DNA from: Pseudodesulfovibrio mercurii | Lineage (GTDB): Bacteria; Desulfobacterota; Desulfovibrionia; Desulfovibrionales; Desulfovibrionaceae | Assembly: GCF_000189295.2 (NCBI RefSeq) | Contig: NC_016803.1 | Location: forward strand, 1,950,001 to 1,982,000 | Reading direction: 5' to 3' | Length of the DNA stretch: 32,000 nucleotides | Shown: positions 3,093 to 30,908 of the stretch, piece after piece | Position numbering within the stretch: the stretch's first letter is position 1 | Layout of the letters: every line of letters begins with the position of its first letter | The notes under the pieces: model-generated | Databases searched by the model: none | Told to the model about the DNA's origin: nothing | What the model saw: only the letters and a program-made list of their open reading frames with translations | Position numbers and translations under genes: made by a program

Positions 3093-3158
3093 GATGCCTC
3101 CGGGCCTCCAGCCGTTGGCGAGTCTTCGAGCCTTACGGATGAGGACAGCAGCGATCGG

Positions 3159-3214
3159 CCGGGGGAAGGGGAGGAAAAACCCTTTGAAAAGGGTTTTTCC
3201 TCCCCTTCCCCCGG
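3159..3214. repeat. Perfect 26-bp-stem palindrome with TGAA loop (REP-like element)
   Basis: I paired it base by base: 3159-3184 is the exact reverse complement of 3189-3214. The core AACCCTTT..AAAGGGTT is shared with the palindrome at 31646-31675. Confidence 0.9.
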
Positions 3215-3333
3215 ACCCCCATCCCCTCCTTTTCCCAAACTCTTTGTCGCCGCTTCGCGGGGAGGGTTGCAGCTTCACCGCCTTCGCCCAATAAACCGAC
3301 CGGAAGCCCCCTCTTCCCTCTTCCTGGAGCGTT

Positions 3334-3362
3334 TCGGGTGCGCAGCACCCGACAGCGGCTCT
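3334..3362 (+). repeat. Hairpin module TCGGGTGC-GCA-GCACCCGA followed by CAGCGGCTCT
   Basis: The same module occurs in inverted orientation at 28981-29011. Confidence 0.8.
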
Positions 3363-3400
3363 TCTTCGCCGCACCTCCGTCCTCGGAAGCCGCTTCACAC

Positions 3401-3430
3401 AAAAAAAGCCCGGTCTCCAAGAGACCGGGC
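3401..3430 (-). terminator. Rho-independent terminator downstream of roo
   Basis: Minus strand reads GCCCGGTCTC-TTG-GAGACCGGGC followed by T7, starting 25 nt after the roo stop. Confidence 0.85.
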
Positions 3431-3454
3431 CTTGATTGCATAATGAGAAGGAGA

Positions 3455-5295: not shown

Positions 5296-5685
5296 CTACG
5301 CGGAGGCGGTCCACAGACCGTGAATGTTGCAGTACTCGCGGGCCTTGAGCGGGCCGGACAGGCCGCAGATGCAGAATTCGGCCTCGGGCTTCTCGCCGGG
5401 CTTGAGCATCTTGGTCAGGACCACGTCGCCCACCTGGAGCTCGATCCACTCGATGTAGTGCTTCTCCTCCATGGGATGGGCCACGGAACCGACCTTGACG
5501 GTGACCTTGTCGCCGTCCTTCTCGATGACGGGGACGTGCTTTTCCTTGGCGGCGTCCACAGTGTTTTCGGTCATCTGGACCATCTCCTCGCCGCAGCAGA
5601 CCAGGCTGCCGCCGCCTTCGTGAATGGCCATGACGATGTTGCCGCAGATATTACACTTGTACACTTCGCCCAGTTTGATAGCCAT
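5296..5685 (-). CDS. dfx: Desulfoferrodoxin (2Fe superoxide reductase)
   Basis: N-terminal desulforedoxin motifs are CNICGN and LVCCGE. The neelaredoxin domain shows [28 protein letters not shown] and [16 protein letters not shown] lies upstream of the ATG. Confidence 0.93.
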
Positions 5686-5713
5686 GTCGAATCCTCCTTG
5701 GATGACGTAAAAA

Positions 5714-6286
5714 TTACCAGTTGGTGTCCTTGATCTCGAAATGGGCCTGGGGATGGTCGCAGGCCGGGCACTTCACGGGAGCGGTGGTGCCCCTGTGATT
5801 GTAACCGCAGTTCTGGCAGCGCCAGACGATCTCCTCGTCCTTGGAAAAGACGCGGTCGGTCTCGATGTTCTTGATGAGGGCCTTGTAGCGCTCCTCATGG
5901 TACCGCTCGGCCACGGCGATGTTCTCCATGACCGCGGCGATCTCGTTGAAACCCTCCTGGCGCGCGATCTTGGCGAACCCGGGGTACATCTCGGTGTTCT
6001 CCTCGTGCTCGCCGGCCGCGGCGGCCTTGAGGTTCTCCAGGGTGTTGCCGATGACCCCGGCGGGGAAGGTGCCGGATACCTCGGCGGTGCCGCCCTCCAG
6101 GAACTTGAACAACCGCTTGGCGTGTTCCTTCTCGTGTCCGGCGGTCTCCTCGAAAATCTTGGAAATCTGCACGTAGCCCTCTTTCTTGGCCACGCTGGCG
6201 TAGTAGGTATACCGGTTGCGGGCCTGGGACTCGCCGGTGAATGCATACATCAGGTTCTTCTCGGTCTGGGTTCCTTTCAGGGACAT
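5714..6286 (-). CDS. rbr: Rubrerythrin
   Basis: Ferritin-like diiron domain ([37 protein letters not shown]) plus a C-terminal rubredoxin-like CQNCG...CPACDHP. ATG at 6286 has AAGGAGG 5 nt upstream and gives 190 aa. I reject the 6334 start in the ORF track. Confidence 0.92.
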
Positions 6287-6446
6287 TATTCCTCCTTGTG
6301 GAATGGATCCTTGGTGTTCCGATTCAGATGCCACCGTACACGAAAACAGGGGGCTTGTCGCATTATTCCGTGAGAAGGTGTTGCGTCTTTCGTTCTTTCA
6401 TCGTTTATCCTGGCGGCGCATTGGCTTATTGCCAAGATGGGAATTA

Positions 6447-6475
6447 TTACTAATTATAAACCCGCTCCCTGTCAA
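6447..6475 (-). promoter_or_regulatory. Putative sigma70 promoter of rbr (TTGACA-N17-TAGTAA) overlapped by an AT-rich PerR/Fur-type box
   Basis: The minus strand has TTGACA (6475-6470), a 17-nt spacer and TAGTAA (6452-6447). The imperfect palindrome ATTATTA-C-TAATTAT (6443-6457) covers the -10. The perR promoter has the same architecture. Confidence 0.5.
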
Positions 6476-6496
6476 GCGATGTGCGGGCCATAGAAT

Positions 6497-6533
6497 CAAA
6501 AAATAAAGCCGGTTGCCCCGAGAGGCAACCGGC
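6497..6533 (-). terminator. Rho-independent terminator downstream of perR
   Basis: Minus strand reads GCCGGTTGCC-TCTCGG-GGCAACCGGC followed by TTTATTTTTTG. Confidence 0.85.
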
Positions 6534-6567
6534 CTTGCGCCGCGGATGCGGATATTTTCCGAAATGT

Positions 6568-6966
6568 CTATTGCCGCGCGGCCTGGCACTTGGGGCAGAT
6601 GCCCACGAATTCCACGTTGGTGGTCAGGATCTTGAAGCCGCCGGCGCAGCTCTCCGGGATGTCCGGGATGTCGATGTCGCACTCCACGTCCACCACGGCC
6701 GTGCAGATCTCGCAGCGGATGTGCGGATGCGGCTCAGGAGTGCCGTCGAACCGTTTCTGCTCGCCGGGCGCACCCAGCTTGAGGACCAGTCCCTTGGAGG
6801 ACAGGAACTCGAGATTCCGGTACACGGTGCCCAGGCTGATCCTGGGAATGATCTTGCGCACCATGTCGTAAACCTCGTCGGCCGTGGGGTGCGTCTTCAC
6901 TTTCCGCAACTCTTCCAATATCACTTTCCGCTGCTTGGAAAGCCTGAAACCCATTTCCTGAGCCAT
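6568..6966 (-). CDS. perR: Fur-family transcriptional regulator, probably peroxide-responsive PerR
   Basis: A winged-helix region (RKVILEEL...HPTADEVY...ISLGTVYRNLEFL) is followed by two CXXC pairs, CEIC and CPKC. ATG at 6966 has GGAGG 6 nt upstream. The PerR call comes from adjacency to rbr, as in D. vulgaris perR-rbr. Confidence 0.8.
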   Translation of the reverse strand: MAQEMGFRLSKQRKVILEELRKVKTHPTADEVYDMVRKIIPRISLGTVYRNLEFLSSKGLVLKLGAPGEQKRFDGTPEPHPHIRCEICTAVVDVECDIDIPDIPESCAGGFKILTTNVEFVGICPKCQAARQ

Positions 6967-6991
6967 GGACGTCCTCCATATTTGATAACAA

Positions 6992-7020
6992 TTACTATTC
7001 CCCTGGTCCATTCTTGTCAA
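6992..7020 (-). promoter_or_regulatory. Putative sigma70 promoter of perR (TTGACA-N17-TAGTAA) with overlapping AT-rich operator-like sequence
   Basis: The minus strand has TTGACA (7020-7015), a 17-nt spacer and TAGTAA (6997-6992). GAATAGTAATTGTTATCAAAT spans the -10 and the likely start site. Confidence 0.5.
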
Positions 7021-7163
7021 GAGGAATCCGTGCAGGCGGAATCATGGCGTATTAGCCCAGAAAACAAAATACTGCAAATGGTCCGGTTGTGTCGACCGCA
7101 GTACCTTTGATTTGCTGGACAAGTTACGCCCGTCACGGACGGCGCGCCGCGCCCGGAGCAGGG

Positions 7164-9237: not shown

Positions 9238-9723
9238 CTAGTGCGCCCCGCCGTACAACAGCGGCTTGAAGTCAAAGGCCTCGACCCGTTCGGGATTGTG
9301 GCAGACCGTACAGTCGTCCAGGGTCAGGTTCCGCTTGATCAGGTCCGGGTCGCCCCCGGACTCCACGTGGTCGTAGCCCGGCCCGTGGCAGACCTCGCAC
9401 CCGGCCTGGGCCATGTTCGGTGTCTGCTCGAAGCTGACGAATCCTCCCGGCTTGCCGTACCCGGTCATGTGGCAGCCGTAACACTCGGCCAACTCCTCCT
9501 TGGTCAGGTCGCCCATCATGATCTTGACGGACTCTCCGGAGTGGGCCTTTTTCGCGAATTTCTTGTAATTGCCGTATTCCTTTTCGTGGCATTCGCTGCA
9601 CGATTCGGACCCGACGTAGCGGCCGGAATTTGCCCGACCGGACTCCGCCAGGACCGCGAAAACGACAAGGGCTGCCAGCGAAAGCGCACAGCAGCCCTTG
9701 ATCCACAACGATCTGTTGAACAT
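9238..9723 (-). CDS. Periplasmic tetrahaem c-type cytochrome (cytochrome c554-like family)
   Basis: Signal peptide plus four CXXCH motifs: CSECH, CYGCH, CEVCH and CTVCH. Its stop codon TAG is part of the MCP Shine-Dalgarno string (TAGGAGGG). Confidence 0.85.
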   Translation of the reverse strand: MFNRSLWIKGCCALSLAALVVFAVLAESGRANSGRYVGSESCSECHEKEYGNYKKFAKKAHSGESVKIMMGDLTKEELAECYGCHMTGYGKPGGFVSFEQTPNMAQAGCEVCHGPGYDHVESGGDPDLIKRNLTLDDCTVCHNPERVEAFDFKPLLYGGAH

Positions 9724-9866
9724 GAACCAACCCCCATAGCTATATAGCCCGGTGCCGCAACCGGCCGGGCACCCTTAACCCGGCCTGGTCAAATACGCCG
9801 TCACCATAGAGAAATATTCACTTTTGGTAAAGGGTTGGAGCTTGGGGGATCGACCTTCTCGATGTT

Positions 9867-12863
9867 TTACCAGGCCAAAGTCTCCTTGAAGGCGGCGGCC
9901 AGCCCGTCCACGGGCGCATCCAGCACCTTTTCGTCCGCCAGGGTGGCGATGAACGCGGGTTCCTCCGAGACGTCGCCGATCCAGGCGCAGGCCTGTCCGG
10001 CGAACAGGGCCTCGAACCGGTCGCGGTTCGACGGGGCCACGGTGACCAGCAGGCGGCTGGCCGATTCCGCGTAGAGCAGACCGGTCAGGTTGAGCTCGCC
10101 ACAGGCCGGGACCTGGTCCAGGTCCACCTCGGCGCCGAGCCGTCCGCCGATGCACATCTCGGCCAGGGCCACGCCCAGGCCGCCGTCCGAGCAGTCGTGG
10201 CAGGCGGTGATCAGCCCTTCCTGGGCGGCCGCGAACACGGTCTCGTAGCGCTTCTTCGCGGTCAGCAGGTCCACCTGCGGCACGCGGGCGTCGGAGAACT
10301 TGAGCTCGTCCGCGACCTCGCTGCCGCCCATCTCCGGCCGGGTCAGGCCGAGCAGGTAGATCAGGTCGCCGGGCTTCTTGAAGTCCGAGGTCAGGCACTT
10401 GTTCACGTCCGGGATGACGCCGATGATCGAGAAGAGCACGGTCGGGGGAATGGATATCTTGCGCCCGCCGCCCTTGTAGTCGTTCTTCATGGAGTCCTTG
10501 CCGGACACGCAGGGCACGCCGAAGCCGAGGCAGTAGTGGGCCAGGGCCTGGTTGGCCCGGACCAACTGGGCCAGCTTGTAGTGGCCGTCCGGGGTGGACT
10601 CGGACTGGACCGGGTCGCACCAGCAGAAGTTGTCCACGCCGGCCATGTAGGAGACGTCGCCGCCCACGGCCACGGCGTTGCGCACGGCCTCGTCGATGGC
10701 GTTGGCCATCATCCAGTAGGTGTCGTAGTCCGAGAACTGCGGGCAGATGCCGTGGGAGACCACCAGCCCCTTGTCCGAGCCGTACTCGGGCCGGATGACG
10801 CCCGCGTCGGACGGGCCGTCCGCCTTGACGCCGACCATGGGCTTGACCGCGGACTTGCCCTGGACCTCGTGGTCGTACTGCCGGACCACGTATTCCTTGG
10901 AGCAGATGTTCAGCCGGCCGAGCATGGCCTTGAGCAGTGCGTTCTGGTCGTCGGCAACGGGCACGGCGTCCTGGGCGATCTCGGGCCGTTTCCAGACGGC
11001 CTTGAGCTCCATCTGGGGCACGCCGTGGTGCAGGAAGTCCATGTCCAGGCAGGTGACCAGCTTGTCGCCGTAGCGCACCAGGTACTTGCCCGACTCGGTG
11101 AAGGTGCCGAGGGCGGTGGACTCCACGTCCATCTCCTCGGACAGGCGCATGAACTCGTCGAGCTTGTCCGGGGGCACGGCCATGGTCATGCGCTCCTGGG
11201 CCTCGGAGATGAGGACCTCCCAGGGACGCAGCCCGTCGTACTTGAGCGGGGCCTTTTTCAGGTCCATGTCGAAGCCGCCGGAGTCCTCGGCCATCTCGCC
11301 CACGGAGGAGGACAGGCCGCCCGCCCCGTTGTCGGTAATGGCGTGGTACAGCCCGAGGTCGCGGGCGCGCATGAGAAAGTCGTACATCTTGCGCTGGGTG
11401 ATGGGGTCGCCGATCTGGACCGCCGTGGCCGGGGAGCCCTCGTGCAGCTCCTCGGACGAGAAGGTCGCGCCGTGGATGCCGTCCGCGCCGATGCGGCCGC
11501 CGGACATGACGATGATGTCGCCGGGCAGGGCGCATTTCTCATAGGACGGATGGCCGGAGACCATGACCGGCATGGTCCCGATGGTCCCGCAGTAGACCAG
11601 GGGCTTGCCCAGGTAGCGCTCGTCGAAGACGATGGACCCGTTCACGGTCGGGATGCCGGACTTGTTGCCGCCGTGCTCCACGCCCTCGCGCACGCCCTCG
11701 AAGACGCGGCGCGGGTGCAGCAGCCTGGGCGGCAGCTCGCCCTCGTGGAACGGGGAGGCGAAGCAGAACACGTCGGTGTTGCACAAAAGGTTCGCGCCCA
11801 TGCCCGTGCCCATGGGGTCGCGGTTCACGCCGACGATGCCGGTCAGGGCCCCGCCGTAGGGGTCCAGGGCGGACGGCGAGTTGTGGGTCTCCATCTTGAC
11901 GCAGACGTTGATGGACTCGGAGAACTTGATCACGCCCGCGTTGTCCTTGAACACGGACAGGCAGTAGTCGCCGCCCTCGCGGGAGGCCGCGTTGCGCGCG
12001 CGGATCTGCTTGGTGGAGTTCTGGATGAAGGTCTTGTACAGGCTCGAATACTCGACGGTCTTGCCGGTCTCGGTGTTCTCGTATTCGATCTTGGCCGAGA
12101 AGATCTTGTGCTTGCAGTGCTCGGACCAGGTCTGGGCCAGGACCTCGATCTCGGCGTCCGTGGGATCGGCGGCGAGGCCCATGGTCTCGCGCTCCGCCCG
12201 GACCGCCGAGTCCGCGAAGTAGGCGCGGATGTCGTGCAGCTCCCTGAGGGACAGGGCCAGGGTGTTGGCACGGGAAAAGTCGGTCAGCTCGTCGTCGGTC
12301 ATGGTGGACAGGGGAATGATCCCGACCTCGTCCGAGGCCTGGCCCGTGACCCGTGCGGCCTTGGCCGCGAAGCCGGGGTCCTCGGCCCACTGGGCGGCGG
12401 ACTTGTACTCGAAGCGCTGGATCAGTTCGTTGGCCAGCAGGTCCTTGGCGATGCGGTGCGCGCCCGCCTCGTCCATGTCGGCCTGGATCAGGTACTGCCG
12501 CGAGGTGTAGACCTTGATCCCCTCGCGCTCGGCCCGGGTCAATCCCAGGACCACGCCCAGGGTCTCGCGGGCGGTCCGCCCCTCGTTGTCGGTCACGCCG
12601 GGCCGGAAGCCGACCTCGATGATCCAGTCGAAGTCGCGGGCCAGGGGCGCGAGCGACACCTCGTGCAGGACCGGGTCGTGCAGGGCGGCCCGCTCGATGG
12701 CCAGGTCCACCTGCTCCCCGGTCACGCCCTCCAGGGTGAAGACGTTGACGATGCGGACGTCGCGCACGTCCATGCCGAGTTCGCTCCTGATCTTGCGGGC
12801 GATCTTCTCGCCGAGCACGTCCCGGACGCCTTCCTTCAGTCCAACGATCACACGACAAAGCAT
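9867..12863 (-). CDS. purL: Phosphoribosylformylglycinamidine (FGAM) synthase, PurL synthetase with fused N-terminal PurS-like region and no glutaminase domain
   Basis: 998-aa ORF with PurL/AIR-synthase-related motifs: ETHNHPSA-like METHNSPSALDPYGGA, DNGAGGLSSSVGEMA, SGKDSM. GAGGAGAG lies upstream of the ATG. Confidence 0.9.
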   Translation of the reverse strand: MLCRVIVGLKEGVRDVLGEKIARKIRSELGMDVRDVRIVNVFTLEGVTGEQVDLAIERAALHDPVLHEVSLAPLARDFDWIIEVGFRPGVTDNEGRTARETLGVVLGLTRAEREGIKVYTSRQYLIQADMDEAGAHRIAKDLLANELIQRFEYKSAAQWAEDPGFAAKAARVTGQASDEVGIIPLSTMTDDELTDFSRANTLALSLRELHDIRAYFADSAVRAERETMGLAADPTDAEIEVLAQTWSEHCKHKIFSAKIEYENTETGKTVEYSSLYKTFIQNSTKQIRARNAASREGGDYCLSVFKDNAGVIKFSESINVCVKMETHNSPSALDPYGGALTGIVGVNRDPMGTGMGANLLCNTDVFCFASPFHEGELPPRLLHPRRVFEGVREGVEHGGNKSGIPTVNGSIVFDERYLGKPLVYCGTIGTMPVMVSGHPSYEKCALPGDIIVMSGGRIGADGIHGATFSSEELHEGSPATAVQIGDPITQRKMYDFLMRARDLGLYHAITDNGAGGLSSSVGEMAEDSGGFDMDLKKAPLKYDGLRPWEVLISEAQERMTMAVPPDKLDEFMRLSEEMDVESTALGTFTESGKYLVRYGDKLVTCLDMDFLHHGVPQMELKAVWKRPEIAQDAVPVADDQNALLKAMLGRLNICSKEYVVRQYDHEVQGKSAVKPMVGVKADGPSDAGVIRPEYGSDKGLVVSHGICPQFSDYDTYWMMANAIDEAVRNAVAVGGDVSYMAGVDNFCWCDPVQSESTPDGHYKLAQLVRANQALAHYCLGFGVPCVSGKDSMKNDYKGGGRKISIPPTVLFSIIGVIPDVNKCLTSDFKKPGDLIYLLGLTRPEMGGSEVADELKFSDARVPQVDLLTAKKRYETVFAAAQEGLITACHDCSDGGLGVALAEMCIGGRLGAEVDLDQVPACGELNLTGLLYAESASRLLVTVAPSNRDRFEALFAGQACAWIGDVSEEPAFIATLADEKVLDAPVDGLAAAFKETLAW

Positions 12864-27114: not shown

Positions 27115-28503
27115 CTACCACCCCTTACCGGGGTTCATGATCTCGTGGGGGTCGAAGACGCGGCGCACGGTCTCCATGAAATGGAGCTGGTCCGCGCCGA
27201 GCTGCTCGGGCACGAAGGAGGCCTTGGTCAGGCCGGTGCCGTGCTCGCCCGAGATGGTCCCGCCCAGTTCCACGGCGGCCCGGAAGAGCCGCTCCTTGAC
27301 CTGGTGGGCGGCGCGGACCTCCTCGGGGTGGGCCGCGTCGTGCATGATGTTGGTGTGGATGTTGCCGTCGCCCAGGTGGCCGTAGCAGAGCACGGGCAGC
27401 CCGGCGTCGGCCCCGGCCTTTTGGGCGATGCGCACCAGCTCGGGCACGCGGCCGCGCGGCACGGCCAGGTCCTCGGAAAGCTTGTCGGGCCGGAGCCGGT
27501 AGGAGCCGGGCGAGATGTCCCGGCGGGCGGCCCAGACCGCTTCCTCGGCCTCGCCCTCGCCCACCTCCAGGGAGACCGGCCCCACGGCCGCAAGCGCCGC
27601 CTCGAGCCGTCGGATCTCGGCGGCCACGCCCTCGGCCGTGCCGTCGAACTTGAAGAGCAGCGCGGCCTGGGCCTGCGGGGCCAGGGGGATGTCGCCGCCC
27701 AGGCGCACGGCCTTGATGGTGGTCACGTCCATGAACTCGCAGGCGCAGGGCAGGAGCCCGGCCCCGAAGACGGCCATGGCCCCGTTCATGGCCCCGTCCA
27801 GGTCGGCGAAGCCCACCAGCACGGAGCTGGAGGTCTCGGGCAGGGGGATGAGCTTGACCGTGGCCCGGGTGATCAGGCCGAGCTTGCCGTCCGCGCCGAC
27901 AAAAAGGCGCTTCAGGTCCAGGCCGACCACGTCCTTCTGGGCCCGGCCGCCCATGGTCAGGACCTTGCCGCCGGGGAGCACGGCCTCGATGCCCAGGACC
28001 CAGTCGCGGGTCACGCCGTACTTAACGGCCCGCAGCCCGCCCGCGCAGGTGGAGATGTTCCCGCCCATGGTGGAGATCTTCACGCTGGCCGGGTCCGGGG
28101 GATAGAAGAGCTTCTTCGCGGCGCATGCCTGCTGGAAGTCCGCCGTGATCACGCCGGGCTCCACCTCGGCGGCGAAGTCGCGTTCGCTGATGTCGAGGAT
28201 GCGGTTCATGCGTAGCAGGGACACGGTCACGCCGTGCAGGAGCGGCACGGTGTTGCCCACCTGCCCGGTGGCCCGTGCGCGCGGATAGAGCGGCATGCGC
28301 TCGGCGTCGGCCCAGCGCAGGAGTTCGGCCGCCTGGTCCCGGCTCTCGGGCCGGACCACGGCCCAGGGCATGGACCGCTCGCGGCTCGCGTCCGTGGAAA
28401 AGGCGTTCATTTCCTCGGTGTCGAGGACGCACCCGTCGCCGGGGAAGAGATCGGTCAGGAACGCCCGGTGGGCGTCTGTCAGGGAGGTGGCGTAATTCGG
28501 CAT
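27115..28503 (-). CDS. glcD: FAD-linked oxidase, GlcD-type (probable D-lactate dehydrogenase)
   Basis: FAD-binding PCMH domain shows PWAVVRPES...PRARATGQVGNTVP. The C-terminal oxidase domain shows GTISGEHGTGLTK and FDPHEIMNPGK. Pairing with a GlcF-like Fe-S subunit matches the Desulfovibrio Dld-II arrangement. Confidence 0.88.
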   Translation of the reverse strand: MPNYATSLTDAHRAFLTDLFPGDGCVLDTEEMNAFSTDASRERSMPWAVVRPESRDQAAELLRWADAERMPLYPRARATGQVGNTVPLLHGVTVSLLRMNRILDISERDFAAEVEPGVITADFQQACAAKKLFYPPDPASVKISTMGGNISTCAGGLRAVKYGVTRDWVLGIEAVLPGGKVLTMGGRAQKDVVGLDLKRLFVGADGKLGLITRATVKLIPLPETSSSVLVGFADLDGAMNGAMAVFGAGLLPCACEFMDVTTIKAVRLGGDIPLAPQAQAALLFKFDGTAEGVAAEIRRLEAALAAVGPVSLEVGEGEAEEAVWAARRDISPGSYRLRPDKLSEDLAVPRGRVPELVRIAQKAGADAGLPVLCYGHLGDGNIHTNIMHDAAHPEEVRAAHQVKERLFRAAVELGGTISGEHGTGLTKASFVPEQLGADQLHFMETVRRVFDPHEIMNPGKGW

Positions 28504-28509
28504 GCGCCG

Positions 28510-28538
28510 AGCCTACGAGTACGATTATCGAGTGTCAA
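28510..28538 (-). promoter_or_regulatory. Possible sigma70 promoter placed so that the glcD mRNA would be leaderless
   Basis: The minus strand has TTGACA (28538-28533), a 17-nt spacer and TAGGCT (28515-28510). Six nt then precede the ATG at 28503, and there is no Shine-Dalgarno sequence. Confidence 0.3.
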
Positions 28539-28563
28539 TGACATGAGAGGCGGGATGGGGGAT

Positions 28564-28666
28564 GGAGCCTGCGGCTCCGCGCTGAAGAGCGCGCCTGCGG
28601 CGCGGAGAGCCGGGATGGAGCTGCGCTCCTCCCTCCGAGAGCCAGCGAGGCGGTTGCACCGCCTCG
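28564..28666. repeat. Cluster of four short GC-rich hairpins, all with a TGC triloop
   Basis: GGAGCC-TGC-GGCTCC (28564-28578), CGCGCC-TGC-GGCGCG (28590-28604), GGAGC-TGC-GCTCC (28617-28629), CGAGGCGGT-TGC-ACCGCCTCG (28646-28666). Confidence 0.8.
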
Positions 28667-28980
28667 GCTTCCATGCCCTCCCGGCGGGGTCCATTTTTTT
28701 GCTGGCCCAAAAAAATAGACGAAAAAAAGGGCCTTGCGGGGGGAGCGGCCGCCCGGGGAGGGGGCGCAAGAATCCGATCCGCTCGGGGCGGCTCCATCTG
28801 AGCAAAAGTATAGTGCGACTCCCGGAGCGGAATGCCCCCTTTTGGGAAAGACCGAGCCTCGAAGGGACAAGAGCCGCCACCCCTTCGCGGTCGGCTTCTA
28901 CGCGCCCCCTCCAGGGCTGTGACGGTGCGGTGAAGAGGTGCGGGGGGGGACGCGGCGGGGCGTGCGTTTTGGTGGGGCCG

Positions 28981-29011
28981 AGAGCCGCTGTCGGGTGCCG
29001 GGGGCACCCGA
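28981..29011 (-). repeat. Inverted copy of the hairpin+CAGCGGCTCT module seen at 3334-3362
   Basis: Minus strand reads TCGGGTGCC-CCC-GGCACCCGA-CAGCGGCTCT. The arms and the 10-nt tail match the 3.3-kb locus. Confidence 0.8.
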
Positions 29012-29297
29012 GTCGCTCCAGTGGGTGCGAGTTGGGGGAGTGTGGGCTTGGGGATGGGGGTTGAAGGCGGGAGTTTGCGTTGGGAGAGCCATGAAAGGGA
29101 AGGAAATGTGGGGGCTCCTACACCTCCCGCGACGCGTTTCTCCTGAGTCCCCAATTTTTCCCAGGGCCGCCGCCAAGGCGGTCCGCCACCCCCCTGTCGC
29201 GAGTGCGGCCAAACCCGCTGTGCTCTTTTCAAGCCCGTCTACAGACGAGGCCCCCCAACCTCCACCGCGCGAGCGCGGCCCAATTTTTCTCACCCCG

Positions 29298-29593
29298 CCT
29301 CTTCGTGCCCGGCCATTCGTCCCGGCCCACTCCCCACACCCGAAGAGCGGTAGTCGGCGGCGGACCCTAGAGCCCGTGTTCGGCGGCGAAAGCGCGGGTT
29401 TGAGCGCGTCTGCGCAGCAGACATTCGCTCACAACCAGCGAAAGCCGCCTACGGGCTCTTGGGTCCGTCGGCGGGCGGCAGCACCGAAGCGCAGTTTTTG
29501 CTTCCTTTTTTCTGCGCCGGCAAAAAGGAAGTCGCCGTAAAGGCGAAATACGATGTGAGGATGACAGTCCTCAGCTCCGACGCGGATGCGCGG
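29298..29593. repeat. Tandem direct repeat, copy A (about 296 bp), non-coding
   Basis: It aligns by eye with 29686-29982, with about 20 differences including one 1-nt indel. It contains a 105-nt rod hairpin (29362-29466) and the hairpin CTTCCTTTTT...AAAAAGGAAG. Confidence 0.9.
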
Positions 29594-29685
29594 ATAAATC
29601 CAAGGAGTCTCTCCCTCCCAGGCCCGCCGCAGGGCGATCCACTACAACACCGCCGCGCAAGCGCGGACAACTTCTCGACTTCAGA

Positions 29686-29982
29686 CCTCTTCGTACCCGG
29701 CCATCCGCTCCGGCCCACTCCTCGCACCCGAAGAGCGGTAATGGGCGGCGGACCCTAGAGCCCGTGTTCGGCGGCGAAAGCGCGGGTTTGAGCGCGTCTG
29801 CGCGGCAGACATTCGCTCACAACCAGCGAAAGCCGCCTACGGGCTCTTGGGTCCGTCGACGCGCGGCAGCACCGCAGCGCAGTTTTTGCTTCCTTTTTTC
29901 TGCGCCAGCAAAAAAGGAAGTCGCCGTAAGGGCGAAATACGATGTAGGGATGACAGTCATCAGCCCCCACGCGGATGCGCGG
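29686..29982. repeat. Tandem direct repeat, copy B (about 297 bp), non-coding
   Basis: It starts 388 bp after copy A. The rod hairpin is at 29750-29854. The ~92-bp spacer (29594-29685) resembles the sequence preceding copy A more loosely. Confidence 0.9.
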
Positions 29983-30009
29983 CCATATTCAAGCGCCCCA
30001 CTTCTTCAT

Positions 30010-30043
30010 AAAAAAGGGCCGCTCCCCGGCAGGGGAACGGCCC
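30010..30043 (-). terminator. Rho-independent terminator downstream of the 117-aa gene
   Basis: Minus strand reads GGGCCGTTCCCC-TGCC-GGGGAGCGGCCC (one mismatch) followed by T6. Confidence 0.8.
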
Positions 30044-30065
30044 TTCACCTCTTCAAACGAAGGGA

Positions 30066-30419
30066 CTAGGCCTCCAGTTCCTTCATCAACCACTCCTTGA
30101 TGGGCGGGGTCAACTCGAGGATGCCCTTGATGCCCTTGATGTCTTCGAGCAGCTGCTTGGCCAGGTCCTCGGGAATCTTCTTGGAACACAGGATGGTCGA
30201 TCCGTAGTTGTCCATGCGCATGAGCACCACCTTGGGCTCACCCCAGGTGTCCATGGCGAAATATACCGAATATTCCCCGGACGTGGTCACCGGCGAACGC
30301 ATGGCGTCGCGATAGTTGTTGTTGCCCCATTCCAGGTACAGGGTGACGGCATCCTCGTGGATCATGTCCCAGTTCACTTCGTTCAGCCACTGCCTGCATG
30401 CGTTGGTGTCGTCGCTCAT
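30066..30419 (-). CDS. Hypothetical 117-aa cytoplasmic protein
   Basis: A clean ORF with GGAGGA 4 nt upstream of the ATG, its own promoter and its own terminator. Composition is coding-like but slightly less GC-rich than the neighbours. I do not recognise the family. Confidence 0.7.
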   Translation of the reverse strand: MSDDTNACRQWLNEVNWDMIHEDAVTLYLEWGNNNYRDAMRSPVTTSGEYSVYFAMDTWGEPKVVLMRMDNYGSTILCSKKIPEDLAKQLLEDIKGIKGILELTPPIKEWLMKELEA

Positions 30420-30449
30420 ATTTCCTCCAAAAGTGTGTTGTCCATTTTT

Positions 30450-30480
30450 TGATAATAAGTATCACTTGGAGTTCTGTCCA
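30450..30480 (-). promoter_or_regulatory. Sigma70-like promoter (TGGACA-N17-TATTAT) with a Fur-box-like 6-1-6 inverted repeat over the -10
   Basis: The minus strand has TGGACA (30480-30475), a 17-nt spacer and TATTAT (30457-30452). TGATACT-T-ATTATCA (30464-30450) matches GATAAT-N-ATTATC at 11 of 12 arm positions. Confidence 0.5.
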
Positions 30481-30485
30481 GCCTC

Positions 30486-30908
30486 TTACGGATCAATGCC
30501 GTCCTCCCGGTTCCGGCGCATCACCCAGACCAGCACCGCGAAGCCGAAAAGCAGCCCCAGCGCGGCCAGTTCGCGCACCCACAGTCCCCAGACCAGCACC
30601 CCGGCCAGCAGCAGCGCGCCCAGCAGCCGCGACCACTTGACCCGGTTCCACGGCGCGGCCGACCAGTTCTTCTCCCACTCCACGCCCCGGCGGGCCAGCC
30701 CGAACCACCAGTTCTCCGGCGGCGCGGGCAGGTCCAGCTCGAAAAATCCCGCGCCCAGCAGGATCAGCGAGGCGGCCAGCAACAGATAGCCGTGCGCGAA
30801 CAGGGCCAGGCCGAACAGGACCAGGGCCGCCGCATGCAGGCTCCAGTTCCACGGCTGGCGGTGTCTCGACAACGCGAGCGCAAACAACGACGACGGCGTG
30901 ACGGCCAT
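30486..30908 (-). CDS. Hypothetical small membrane protein (about four TM segments)
   Basis: ATG at 30908 has GGAGGAG upstream. Hydrophobic segments alternate with Trp/Arg-rich loops. I do not recognise the family. Confidence 0.6.
   Translation of the reverse strand: MAVTPSSLFALALSRHRQPWNWSLHAAALVLFGLALFAHGYLLLAASLILLGAGFFELDLPAPPENWWFGLARRGVEWEKNWSAAPWNRVKWSRLLGALLLAGVLVWGLWVRELAALGLLFGFAVLVWVMRRNREDGIDP

Follow-up and report, generated by a model that had tools for sequence, protein, structure and literature searches.

A large modular palindromic repeat is the probable content of the gene-free gap upstream of glcD in Pseudodesulfovibrio mercurii

A stretch of 32,000 nt from Pseudodesulfovibrio mercurii (contig NC_016803.1, positions 1,950,001 to 1,982,000; hereafter the window, whose own numbering is used throughout) contains a long gene-free gap directly upstream of the gene glcD. 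With a probability of roughly 70%, the part of this gap from ~28550 to 30007 is a single member of a family of interspersed repeats that are large, modular, non-coding and palindromic. The window element is ~1.46 kb long. Composite copies of the family consist of an L-module of ~365 nt and an R-module of ~380 nt, always in the order L then R, and each module contains a long imperfect hairpin beside a block of ~60 nt made up of short GC stems, T-runs and A-runs. The L-blocks and R-blocks are inverted homologues of each other, so that the whole element is a giant imperfect palindrome; in the window, the right part of this palindrome is duplicated (two R-modules). An earlier reading of the same DNA, made from its letters and a list of open reading frames (ORFs; hereafter the sequence-only reading), had suggested that the gap might hold structured RNAs, a long regulatory leader, or a nest of elements resembling repetitive extragenic palindromic sequences (REP), bacterial interspersed mosaic elements (BIME) or miniature transposable elements with inverted repeats (MITEs). 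The last suggestion holds insofar as the gap contains a multi-copy, dispersed, non-coding palindromic repeat, but this is one large modular element rather than a set of unrelated small ones.

Homology searches demonstrated copies of the element at unrelated intergenic sites of relatives. In P. karagichevae (locus L001), positions 5985-6790 hold a collinear homologue with one R-module, flanked by genes for an oxidoreductase and a DUF3089-like protein. This copy lies 1.2 kb upstream of glcD, to which it has the opposite orientation from the window element, whereas 'Desulfovibrio caledoniensis' (L002) has only 75 nt where L001 carries the element. This empty site provides the presence/absence polymorphism that the sequence-only reading had associated with MITE-type elements. 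In L081 the whole element (5340-7100, ~1.8 kb) stands between flagellin and flgE and has two tandem R-modules, and further glcD loci also carry the family: L006 contains two copies within 17 kb (one after secA, the other beside dapF), L012 two partial copies and L003 a solo block. A scan of metagenomes with a degenerate 25-mer from the L-module returned 103 matching stretches, and family copies were confirmed by nhmmer in roughly 45 metagenome loci, 11 of them composite (one to three L-modules followed by one or two R-modules), with at least four composites on one contig of 492 kb. Module counts in 12 composites range from one to three for L (period ~365 nt) and from one to two for R (period 348-400 nt), and the composite elements span 0.7-1.9 kb. 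Copies designated Group A are ~75% identical to the window element and belong with a GlcD that is 87% identical, which places Group A in the same genus as the window. Copies of Group B, of which more than 20 instances were detected, are simpler palindromic elements; they measure 590-640 nt, their inverted end blocks 135-170 nt, and single contigs of 165-227 kb carry several of them (four to five or more). The family is multi-copy, non-coding and base-paired, as MITEs are; judging from these homologies, it occurs in Pseudodesulfovibrio and related Desulfovibrionaceae. It is apparently undescribed, and a literature search for MITE, REP or palindromic repeats of Desulfovibrio or Pseudodesulfovibrio returned nothing relevant. 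A BLAST search with the region did not find the family in plasmid or phage collections, and an exact 20-mer from a hairpin arm had no match in genome contigs because the relatives differ in that arm.

The immediate surroundings of the element are as follows.

28504-30065: gene-free gap of 1562 nt between two minus-strand genes
27115-28503, minus strand: glcD, with FAD_binding_4 and FAD-oxidase_C domains
28504-28549, minus strand: unique DNA next to glcD, outside the repeat; relatives' glcD loci are homologous only up to 28519-28540
30010-30043, minus strand: intrinsic terminator of the DVU0772-family gene, which flanks the element and is not part of it
30066-30419, minus strand: DVU0772-family gene of 117 aa, the next gene upstream of glcD

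The gap is the largest of the window, the next two measuring 372 and 362 nt, so that the description of it as a spacing outlier was correct, as were the coordinates that had been proposed for the terminator. The view that no ORF here is coding was likewise upheld. All ten ORFs of at least 60 aa in the gap have flat G+C by codon position (G+C at third positions, GC3, of 0.60-0.71 and an excess over second positions of at most 0.10), whereas the real genes of the window have GC3 of 0.76-0.96. Alignments of homologous copies contain many 1- and 2-nt insertions and deletions (indels), including frame-breaking ones even inside the otherwise invariant block. The element encodes no protein. A decayed protein gene, or a tandem cassette of small toxic peptides like the long direct repeats of type I toxin-antitoxin systems, is accordingly an extremely improbable alternative. 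Its unit lengths of 365-390 nt do resemble repeats of the LDR/SIB type, every frame through the block reads as a hydrophobic stretch followed by lysines, and gene calling produced a 535-aa ORF from the L081 copy. Nevertheless, the two window copies differ by one A in an A-run, which shifts the frame, and in the L143 copy three run-length indels leave the hairpins intact while the peptide is lost; changes in the block are paired rather than synonymous, and the codon-position signature of a gene is lacking. A tblastn search with the genes flanking the element in L001 and L002 recovered no remnant, and a six-frame protein search of the R-module recovered one spurious ORF only. Remnants of the DUF3089 or oxidoreductase genes were considered separately and rejected, as tblastn gave no signal beyond the repeat itself. 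The 535-aa public gene call (protein P0001, L081 5555-7162) spans the whole repeat element and is almost certainly spurious.

Within the gap, the parts of the element can be listed from the glcD side onwards.

28550-28665: left terminal segment, which starts GCGGGATGGGG and holds four short GC hairpins
28564-28578, 28589-28604, 28617-28629 and 28647-28665: short GC hairpins of the left segment, three with a TGC loop
28676-28733: L-block, an inverted, diverged homologue of the R-block
28676-28689: small GC hairpin of the L-block, followed by a T-run; terminator-like on the plus strand
28689-28720: T-run/A-run hairpin of the L-block with loop GCTGGCCC, containing TTTTTTTGCTGGCCCAAAAAAA at 28694-28715
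28721-28733: A-run and GGGCC of the L-block
28733-28770: hairpin H (CTTGCG...CGCAAG), between the L-block and the long hairpin
28763-28906: long imperfect hairpin of the L-module, with arms 28763-28795 and 28869-28906
28804-28814: AAAAGTATAGT, conserved, in the loop of the long L-module hairpin
28907-29261: central segment, whose G-rich half (to ~29100) folds onto its C-rich half
28981-29021: conserved 41-nt hairpin of the central segment
29151-29160: first CCAATTTTTC, in the central segment
29262-29649: R-module copy 1, with hairpins 29265-29278 and 29299-29347, long hairpin 29356-29473 and R-block 29489-29546
29280-29289: second CCAATTTTTC, in the span of R-module copy 1
29489-29546, twin 29877-29935: R-block (58 nt), GCGCAG-TTTTTG-CTTCCTTTTTT-CTGCGC-CGGC-AAAAAGGAAG-TCGCCGTAAAGGCGA
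29546-29532 and 29935-29921, minus strand: terminator-like sites of the R-blocks (hairpin C, then a T-run)
29581-29593 (R-module copy 1) and 29970-29982 (copy 2): CGCGGATGCGCGG
29618-29636: CCAGGCCCGCCGCAGGGCG, in R-module copy 1
29650-30007: R-module copy 2, with hairpins 29653-29666 and 29687-29735, long hairpin 29744-29861 and R-block 29877-29935

The two positions of CCAATTTTTC are those of the sequence-only reading, which had placed TTTTTTTGCTGGCCCAAAAAAA nine positions too far to the left, at 28685-28706. The left segment has homologous counterparts at the left ends of copies in L081 and the Group A loci (GCGGGAAGGTG...; GAGAGCCAGTG-hairpin-CAGCTTCC), and the right end of the window element, at ~29996-30007, matches the Group A right ends (CGCGAAGCGCGGCA...CTACTTCC). 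Hairpin H occupies the same position in all L-modules although its inner sequence is variable, and the arms of the long L-module hairpin are conserved and complementary across 22 aligned L-modules. In the central segment, GC skew changes from +0.44 to -0.27, and 28976-29075 is collinear with L001 6335-6425 and L081 5653-5803. Homologues of R-module copy 1 are L001 6400-6790, two copies in L081 and 12 copies in Group A. The large tandem duplication that had been described is real: 29262-29526 matches 29650-29914 at 90% and 29522-29604 matches 29911-29993 at 88%, giving a period of 388-389 nt and aligned units that are ~90% identical. The twin nested hairpins of 115 nt (29356-29473 and 29744-29861) have 1 difference in ~112 nt, while the rest of the unit is ~15% different. 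A template/variable repeat pair of the diversity-generating retroelement type was considered for these two copies and rejected, since their differences are not adenine-specific. The palindromic relation of the two ends is visible in inverted repeat I1 (28695-28727 versus 29883-29915, 82% over 33 nt), in a further inverted repeat (I10) that also links L- and R-blocks, and in the cross-match of the L and R profiles in reverse orientation (nhmmer, E about 5e-4). Folding exceeds that of dinucleotide shuffles, with z-scores of -5.6 (plus strand) and -4.6 (minus strand) for 29340-29560, -2.7 for 28549-28910 and -2.8 for 28911-29298, in agreement with the earlier description of the region as hairpin-dense.

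Pairing within the modules is conserved between copies. Across a set of 17 R-modules, 98.5% of cells in the 115-nt hairpin are paired, and 14 pairs have changed on both sides, compared with 6.3 +/- 1.2 in shuffles (0/500 reach the observed value) and 1-5 in slid controls. The adjoining R-block consists of two interleaved stems, a/a' (GCGCAG/CTGCGC) and b/b' (CTTCCTTTTTT/AAAAAGGAAG), followed by the small hairpin C. Both interleaved stems covary across more than 10 variants drawn from L-modules, R-modules and Group B, with stem a/a' appearing as GCGCAG/CTGCGC, GGCCC/GGGCC, GGGGC/GCCCC, GGCGG/CCGCC, AAGCAG/CTGCTT, AGGCAC/GTGCCT, AGGCGC/GCGCCT, AGCCG/CGGCT or GCCGG/CCGGC. The mean stem length is 4.8, compared with 4.13 +/- 0.12 when partners are swapped (0/200 swaps reach 4.8). 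Variation in the T-rich linker (T7, TTTTCTTT, TTTCTTT) goes along with that in stem b, which the linker partly repeats in direct orientation. For the block, a pseudoknot, a set of alternative hairpins and overlapping DNA sites all come into consideration. A triple-helix pseudoknot, with the T-rich linker lying parallel to the A-run, was set aside as the main reading on three grounds: the linker is a partial direct repeat of strand b, the linker of the L098 variant fits antiparallel pairing only, and the six linker bases of the R-block cannot form triples and also span an 11-bp stem.

These patterns bear on the main rival explanation, namely that the modules are multi-copy genes for structured non-coding RNAs, transcribed so that the hairpin and the invariant block act as RNA (in stability, processing, or as a sponge or regulator). 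Compensatory pairing in all helices of the 115-nt hairpin and the covariation of both block stems speak for such genes, as do the invariance of the block against ~80% identity at neutral sites, the retention of copies at the same loci in different species, and a slight folding asymmetry that favors the outward-reading strands (plus for R-modules, minus for L-modules). However, palindromic DNA elements likewise keep both arms matched, and DNA repeats typically form tandem arrays and inverted pairs. The orientation of copies to neighbouring genes is arbitrary, and counts of G-U versus C-A pairs indicate no clear strand. Neither a conserved promoter in the element nor a sigma-54 promoter consensus in the region was found, the window as a whole holding fewer sigma-54 matches than chance. 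The comparison with Rfam that had been put forward also yielded no family: Rfam 15 covariance models at gathering score matched nothing in the whole window, a permissive threshold gave chance-level matches only in the region (E up to 10), and the sole match in eight loci with other copies was a tRNA elsewhere. RNA genes are therefore considered unlikely, but the explanation is retained because selfish spread alone does not account for the function that the invariant block requires. A more doubtful proposal is that the block and the long hairpin together form a functional device, either an RNA pseudoknot or three-way switch or a recognition structure in single-strand DNA, and that the family would represent a new class of large modular non-coding element. 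If so, it might spread by a mechanism without target-site duplication, or might serve as a programmable bidirectional insulator of transcription that Pseudodesulfovibrio keeps at fixed loci.

The interspersed-repeat interpretation is favored by the relationships between copies. Within one genome, R-modules from different loci show 92-97% identity, whereas same-locus copies in different species (L001 versus L124) are 74% identical, a pattern that indicates homogenisation within genomes or repeated re-insertion. Group A two-copy arrays combine two modules of different subtypes, and the subtypes are common to several loci, so the arrays are not simple recent local duplications. The window element sits at a chromosome rearrangement junction, with synteny broken on both sides. 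On the glcD side, where the window GlcD has 90% identity to the P. karagichevae protein and 89% to that of 'Desulfovibrio caledoniensis', synteny with L001 and L002 stops 16-37 nt upstream of the ATG. On the other side, where the DVU0772-family protein is 94% identical to its P. methanolicus counterpart, the stop codon marks the end of synteny with P. methanolicus and with two metagenome contigs; in those relatives a major facilitator superfamily (MFS) gene follows with no element, and the relatives' DVU0772-family loci have a different terminator at this place. Since elements of this family mark synteny breakpoints, they probably drive rearrangements.

Several observations weigh against this interpretation. 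The copy counts come from loci of relatives and from metagenome contigs, with the source genome represented by the window alone. Different species have copies in common both at the oxidoreductase/DUF3089 site (L001, L124) and at the flagellin site (L081, L110), which points to long retention rather than recent mobility. No direct repeat was found at the ends of ten Group B copies, whose flanks continue the palindrome, and no target-site duplication could be defined for composites, whose ends are not fixed to the base and whose empty-site comparison is too diverged. The 280 ORFs that lie within 1.5 kb of 51 element regions include no recurrent transposase-like family, and no other gene recurs beside the copies either. 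The composite termini show at best a weak inverted repeat, the inverted homology of the L- and R-blocks being internal; the element is, at 1.46 kb, far above typical MITE size; and it is only slightly lower in G+C than its surroundings (0.59-0.71 versus 0.68-0.78 in the flanking genes). Finally, the 58-nt T-run/A-run block shows 97-100% identity between copies that match at 70-83% in their hairpins, while four-fold degenerate sites of glcD, used as a neutral reference, are 80% identical between the window and L001; this invariance points to a function, possibly in RNA. A Pfam scan of ten larger window ORFs found no transposase family, and three of the ten were without any match.

Taken together, the best reading is that the element works like an interspersed repeat of the BOX/MITE type with terminator-like ends, without being a proven MITE. 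It would behave as selfish or structural DNA that has spread to many intergenic sites, with copies kept alike within a genome by re-insertion or gene conversion and module numbers changing through slippage or unequal exchange. Recombination between copies would rearrange the chromosome and may have produced the local rearrangement at the window site, and the inward-facing ends, each a hairpin with a T-run, would terminate transcription coming from the flanks.

The last of these proposed properties can be traced to specific sites. The gap contains seven terminator-like sites (2.7 +/- 1.7 expected), and a hairpin with a T-run faces inward at both ends of the element, on the plus strand at 28676-28700 and on the minus strand at 29546-29520 and 29935-29909. 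The end blocks probably stop transcription that enters the element from either side. Given inward terminators at both ends, glcD would start from its own 45 nt of upstream DNA, where the minus strand carries TTGACA (28538-28533), a 17-nt spacer and TAGGCT (28515-28510) before the ATG. This putative glcD promoter is predicted from its motifs, and from its position transcription would begin at the ATG or next to it. As glcD lacks a Shine-Dalgarno sequence, its mRNA may be leaderless. By contrast, the reading in which the element is a long 5' leader, attenuator or riboswitch-like region of glcD and the lactate/glycolate oxidase operon, also among the earlier suggestions, has become very improbable. 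The element does lie directly upstream of glcD, and terminator-like hairpins are abundant on the minus strand, but the three terminator-like sites together with the terminator at 30010-30043 would block a transcript from upstream. Moreover, the element in L001 and L124 lies upstream of the DUF3089-like gene and is inverted to glcD, L002 is without it, glcD in both L001 and L002 begins ~70 nt after the preceding gene, and full copies stand beside unrelated genes (flagellin/flgE, secA, dapF). As a leader specific to glcD, it is refuted by this comparison of loci.

Other features of the flanking genes and of the intergenic DNA were observed alongside the element. The conserved DVU0772 family has no assigned function and no Pfam domain, and has 74 relatives in Desulfovibrionaceae; the patch of the window that contains its 117-aa gene (30066-30500) has a G+C content of 0.50-0.58 compared with ~0.70 elsewhere. 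In L001, two extra genes (246 and 264 aa, at 9515-11042) stand between glcD and the gene for the Fe-S/CCG-domain subunit, two genes that are 7 nt apart in the window. A solo copy of the central 41-nt hairpin occurs at window 3324-3362 (85% over 41 nt, E = 2e-6). The long gap that holds this solo copy, at 3093-3454 (362 nt), also has a near-perfect palindrome with a 28-bp stem at 3157-3215 (CGGCCGGGGGAAGGGGAGGAAAAACCC...GGGTTTTTCCTCCCCTTCCCCCGG), which recurs in L186 (14497-14556) between argJ and an HD-domain gene. Several repeat families thus seem to share the intergenic space of the source genome. A mini-repeat of ~85 nt (ATTCRCCCCGTCCTGGGG...CCAAATCCGCTGTCCTGCGGATTTGT) is inserted in two L-module copies (L006 1125-1210 and L012 2945-3022), in the latter splitting the A/T hairpin loop, and looks like a second, smaller mobile repeat family. 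The variable centre of the L081 copy contains an AT-rich insert (5945-5990) with a perfect 16-bp palindrome, TTGTATGTACATACAA; the window copy lacks it, and it could represent an operator-like site. The ends of Group B copies are flanked by iterated AAAGRCA motifs in mirror orientation (e.g., L093 4100-4830, L113 960-1640, L153 1636-2430), and CTTGGAGGGTTGACA is found ~45 nt outside several of them. This motif was dropped as a candidate for the true terminus because it is unpaired; both motifs may be subterminal binding repeats or a separate promoter-like repeat.

The analysis explains the largest non-coding gap of the window and removes a false lead, that of a glcD riboswitch or leader. It also indicates that high-G+C sulfate reducers carry abundant kilobase-sized, protein-free modular repeats, which gene callers in such genomes turn into spurious ORFs of up to 535 aa. 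The elements probably insulate neighbouring genes from each other's transcription. The profiles from this analysis could serve to annotate the family, and the invariant block, being short and well defined, lends itself to experiments on termination, RNA folding or protein binding.

Among known repeat systems, the BOX elements of Streptococcus pneumoniae (boxA - boxB x n - boxC; 67-637 bp with modules of 45-60 nt; PMC3049150) are the closest analogue, a likeness of architecture rather than of family membership. Both are composite, modular, non-coding interspersed repeats with variable tandem internal modules; in both, the end modules pair and the whole folds tightly, copies are intergenic beside unrelated genes, there is no transposase of their own, and an effect on neighbouring transcription through structure is expected. 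In contrast to BOX, the modules here are 365-390 nt long (five to eight times larger), in elements of 0.7-1.9 kb, two module types rather than one can be amplified, and a 58-nt invariant block with interleaved stems is present. The host belongs to a G+C-rich deltaproteobacterial lineage, and no sequence similarity to BOX is known or expected.

MITEs are recognised as AT-rich, base-paired, non-autonomous, multi-copy elements with terminal inverted repeats and a target-site duplication (PMC3049150). With MITEs and other palindromic repeats (Correia/NEMIS, ERIC/IRU, RUP, Nezha), the present family shares multiple copies, the lack of coding content, a high degree of base pairing, presence/absence polymorphism, terminator-like features and an inverted-repeat architecture, which in the Group B form includes inverted end blocks of ~135-170 nt. 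It differs in that it is not AT-rich, that neither a target-site duplication nor a matching insertion sequence or transposase was found near copies, and that the inverted homology of the composite form is not strictly terminal. MITEs are usually under about 600 bp in size, and the composite form is two to ten times larger than these repeats.

Short GC-rich hairpins in series (28564-28665) and a mosaic cluster in a long intergenic region recall REP and BIME, as do possible roles in termination and rearrangement. However, these hairpins have one orientation and are fixed in a conserved L-module, whereas REPs are free units of 20-40 nt in alternating orientation, and no gene for RAYT, the transposase that mobilises REP/BIME clusters, was seen near any copy. 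The end block, a short GC hairpin followed by a T-run and read inward, resembles SPRITE and other repeats that look like Rho-independent terminators (PMC3049150), but this part makes up ~25 nt of a 1.5-kb element and overlaps a second, interleaved stem pair without a SPRITE counterpart. Unlike the long direct repeats of type I toxin-antitoxin systems, the units here contain no conserved small ORF. The likeness remains greatest with BOX, at the level of a modular, tightly folding repeat whose end modules pair.

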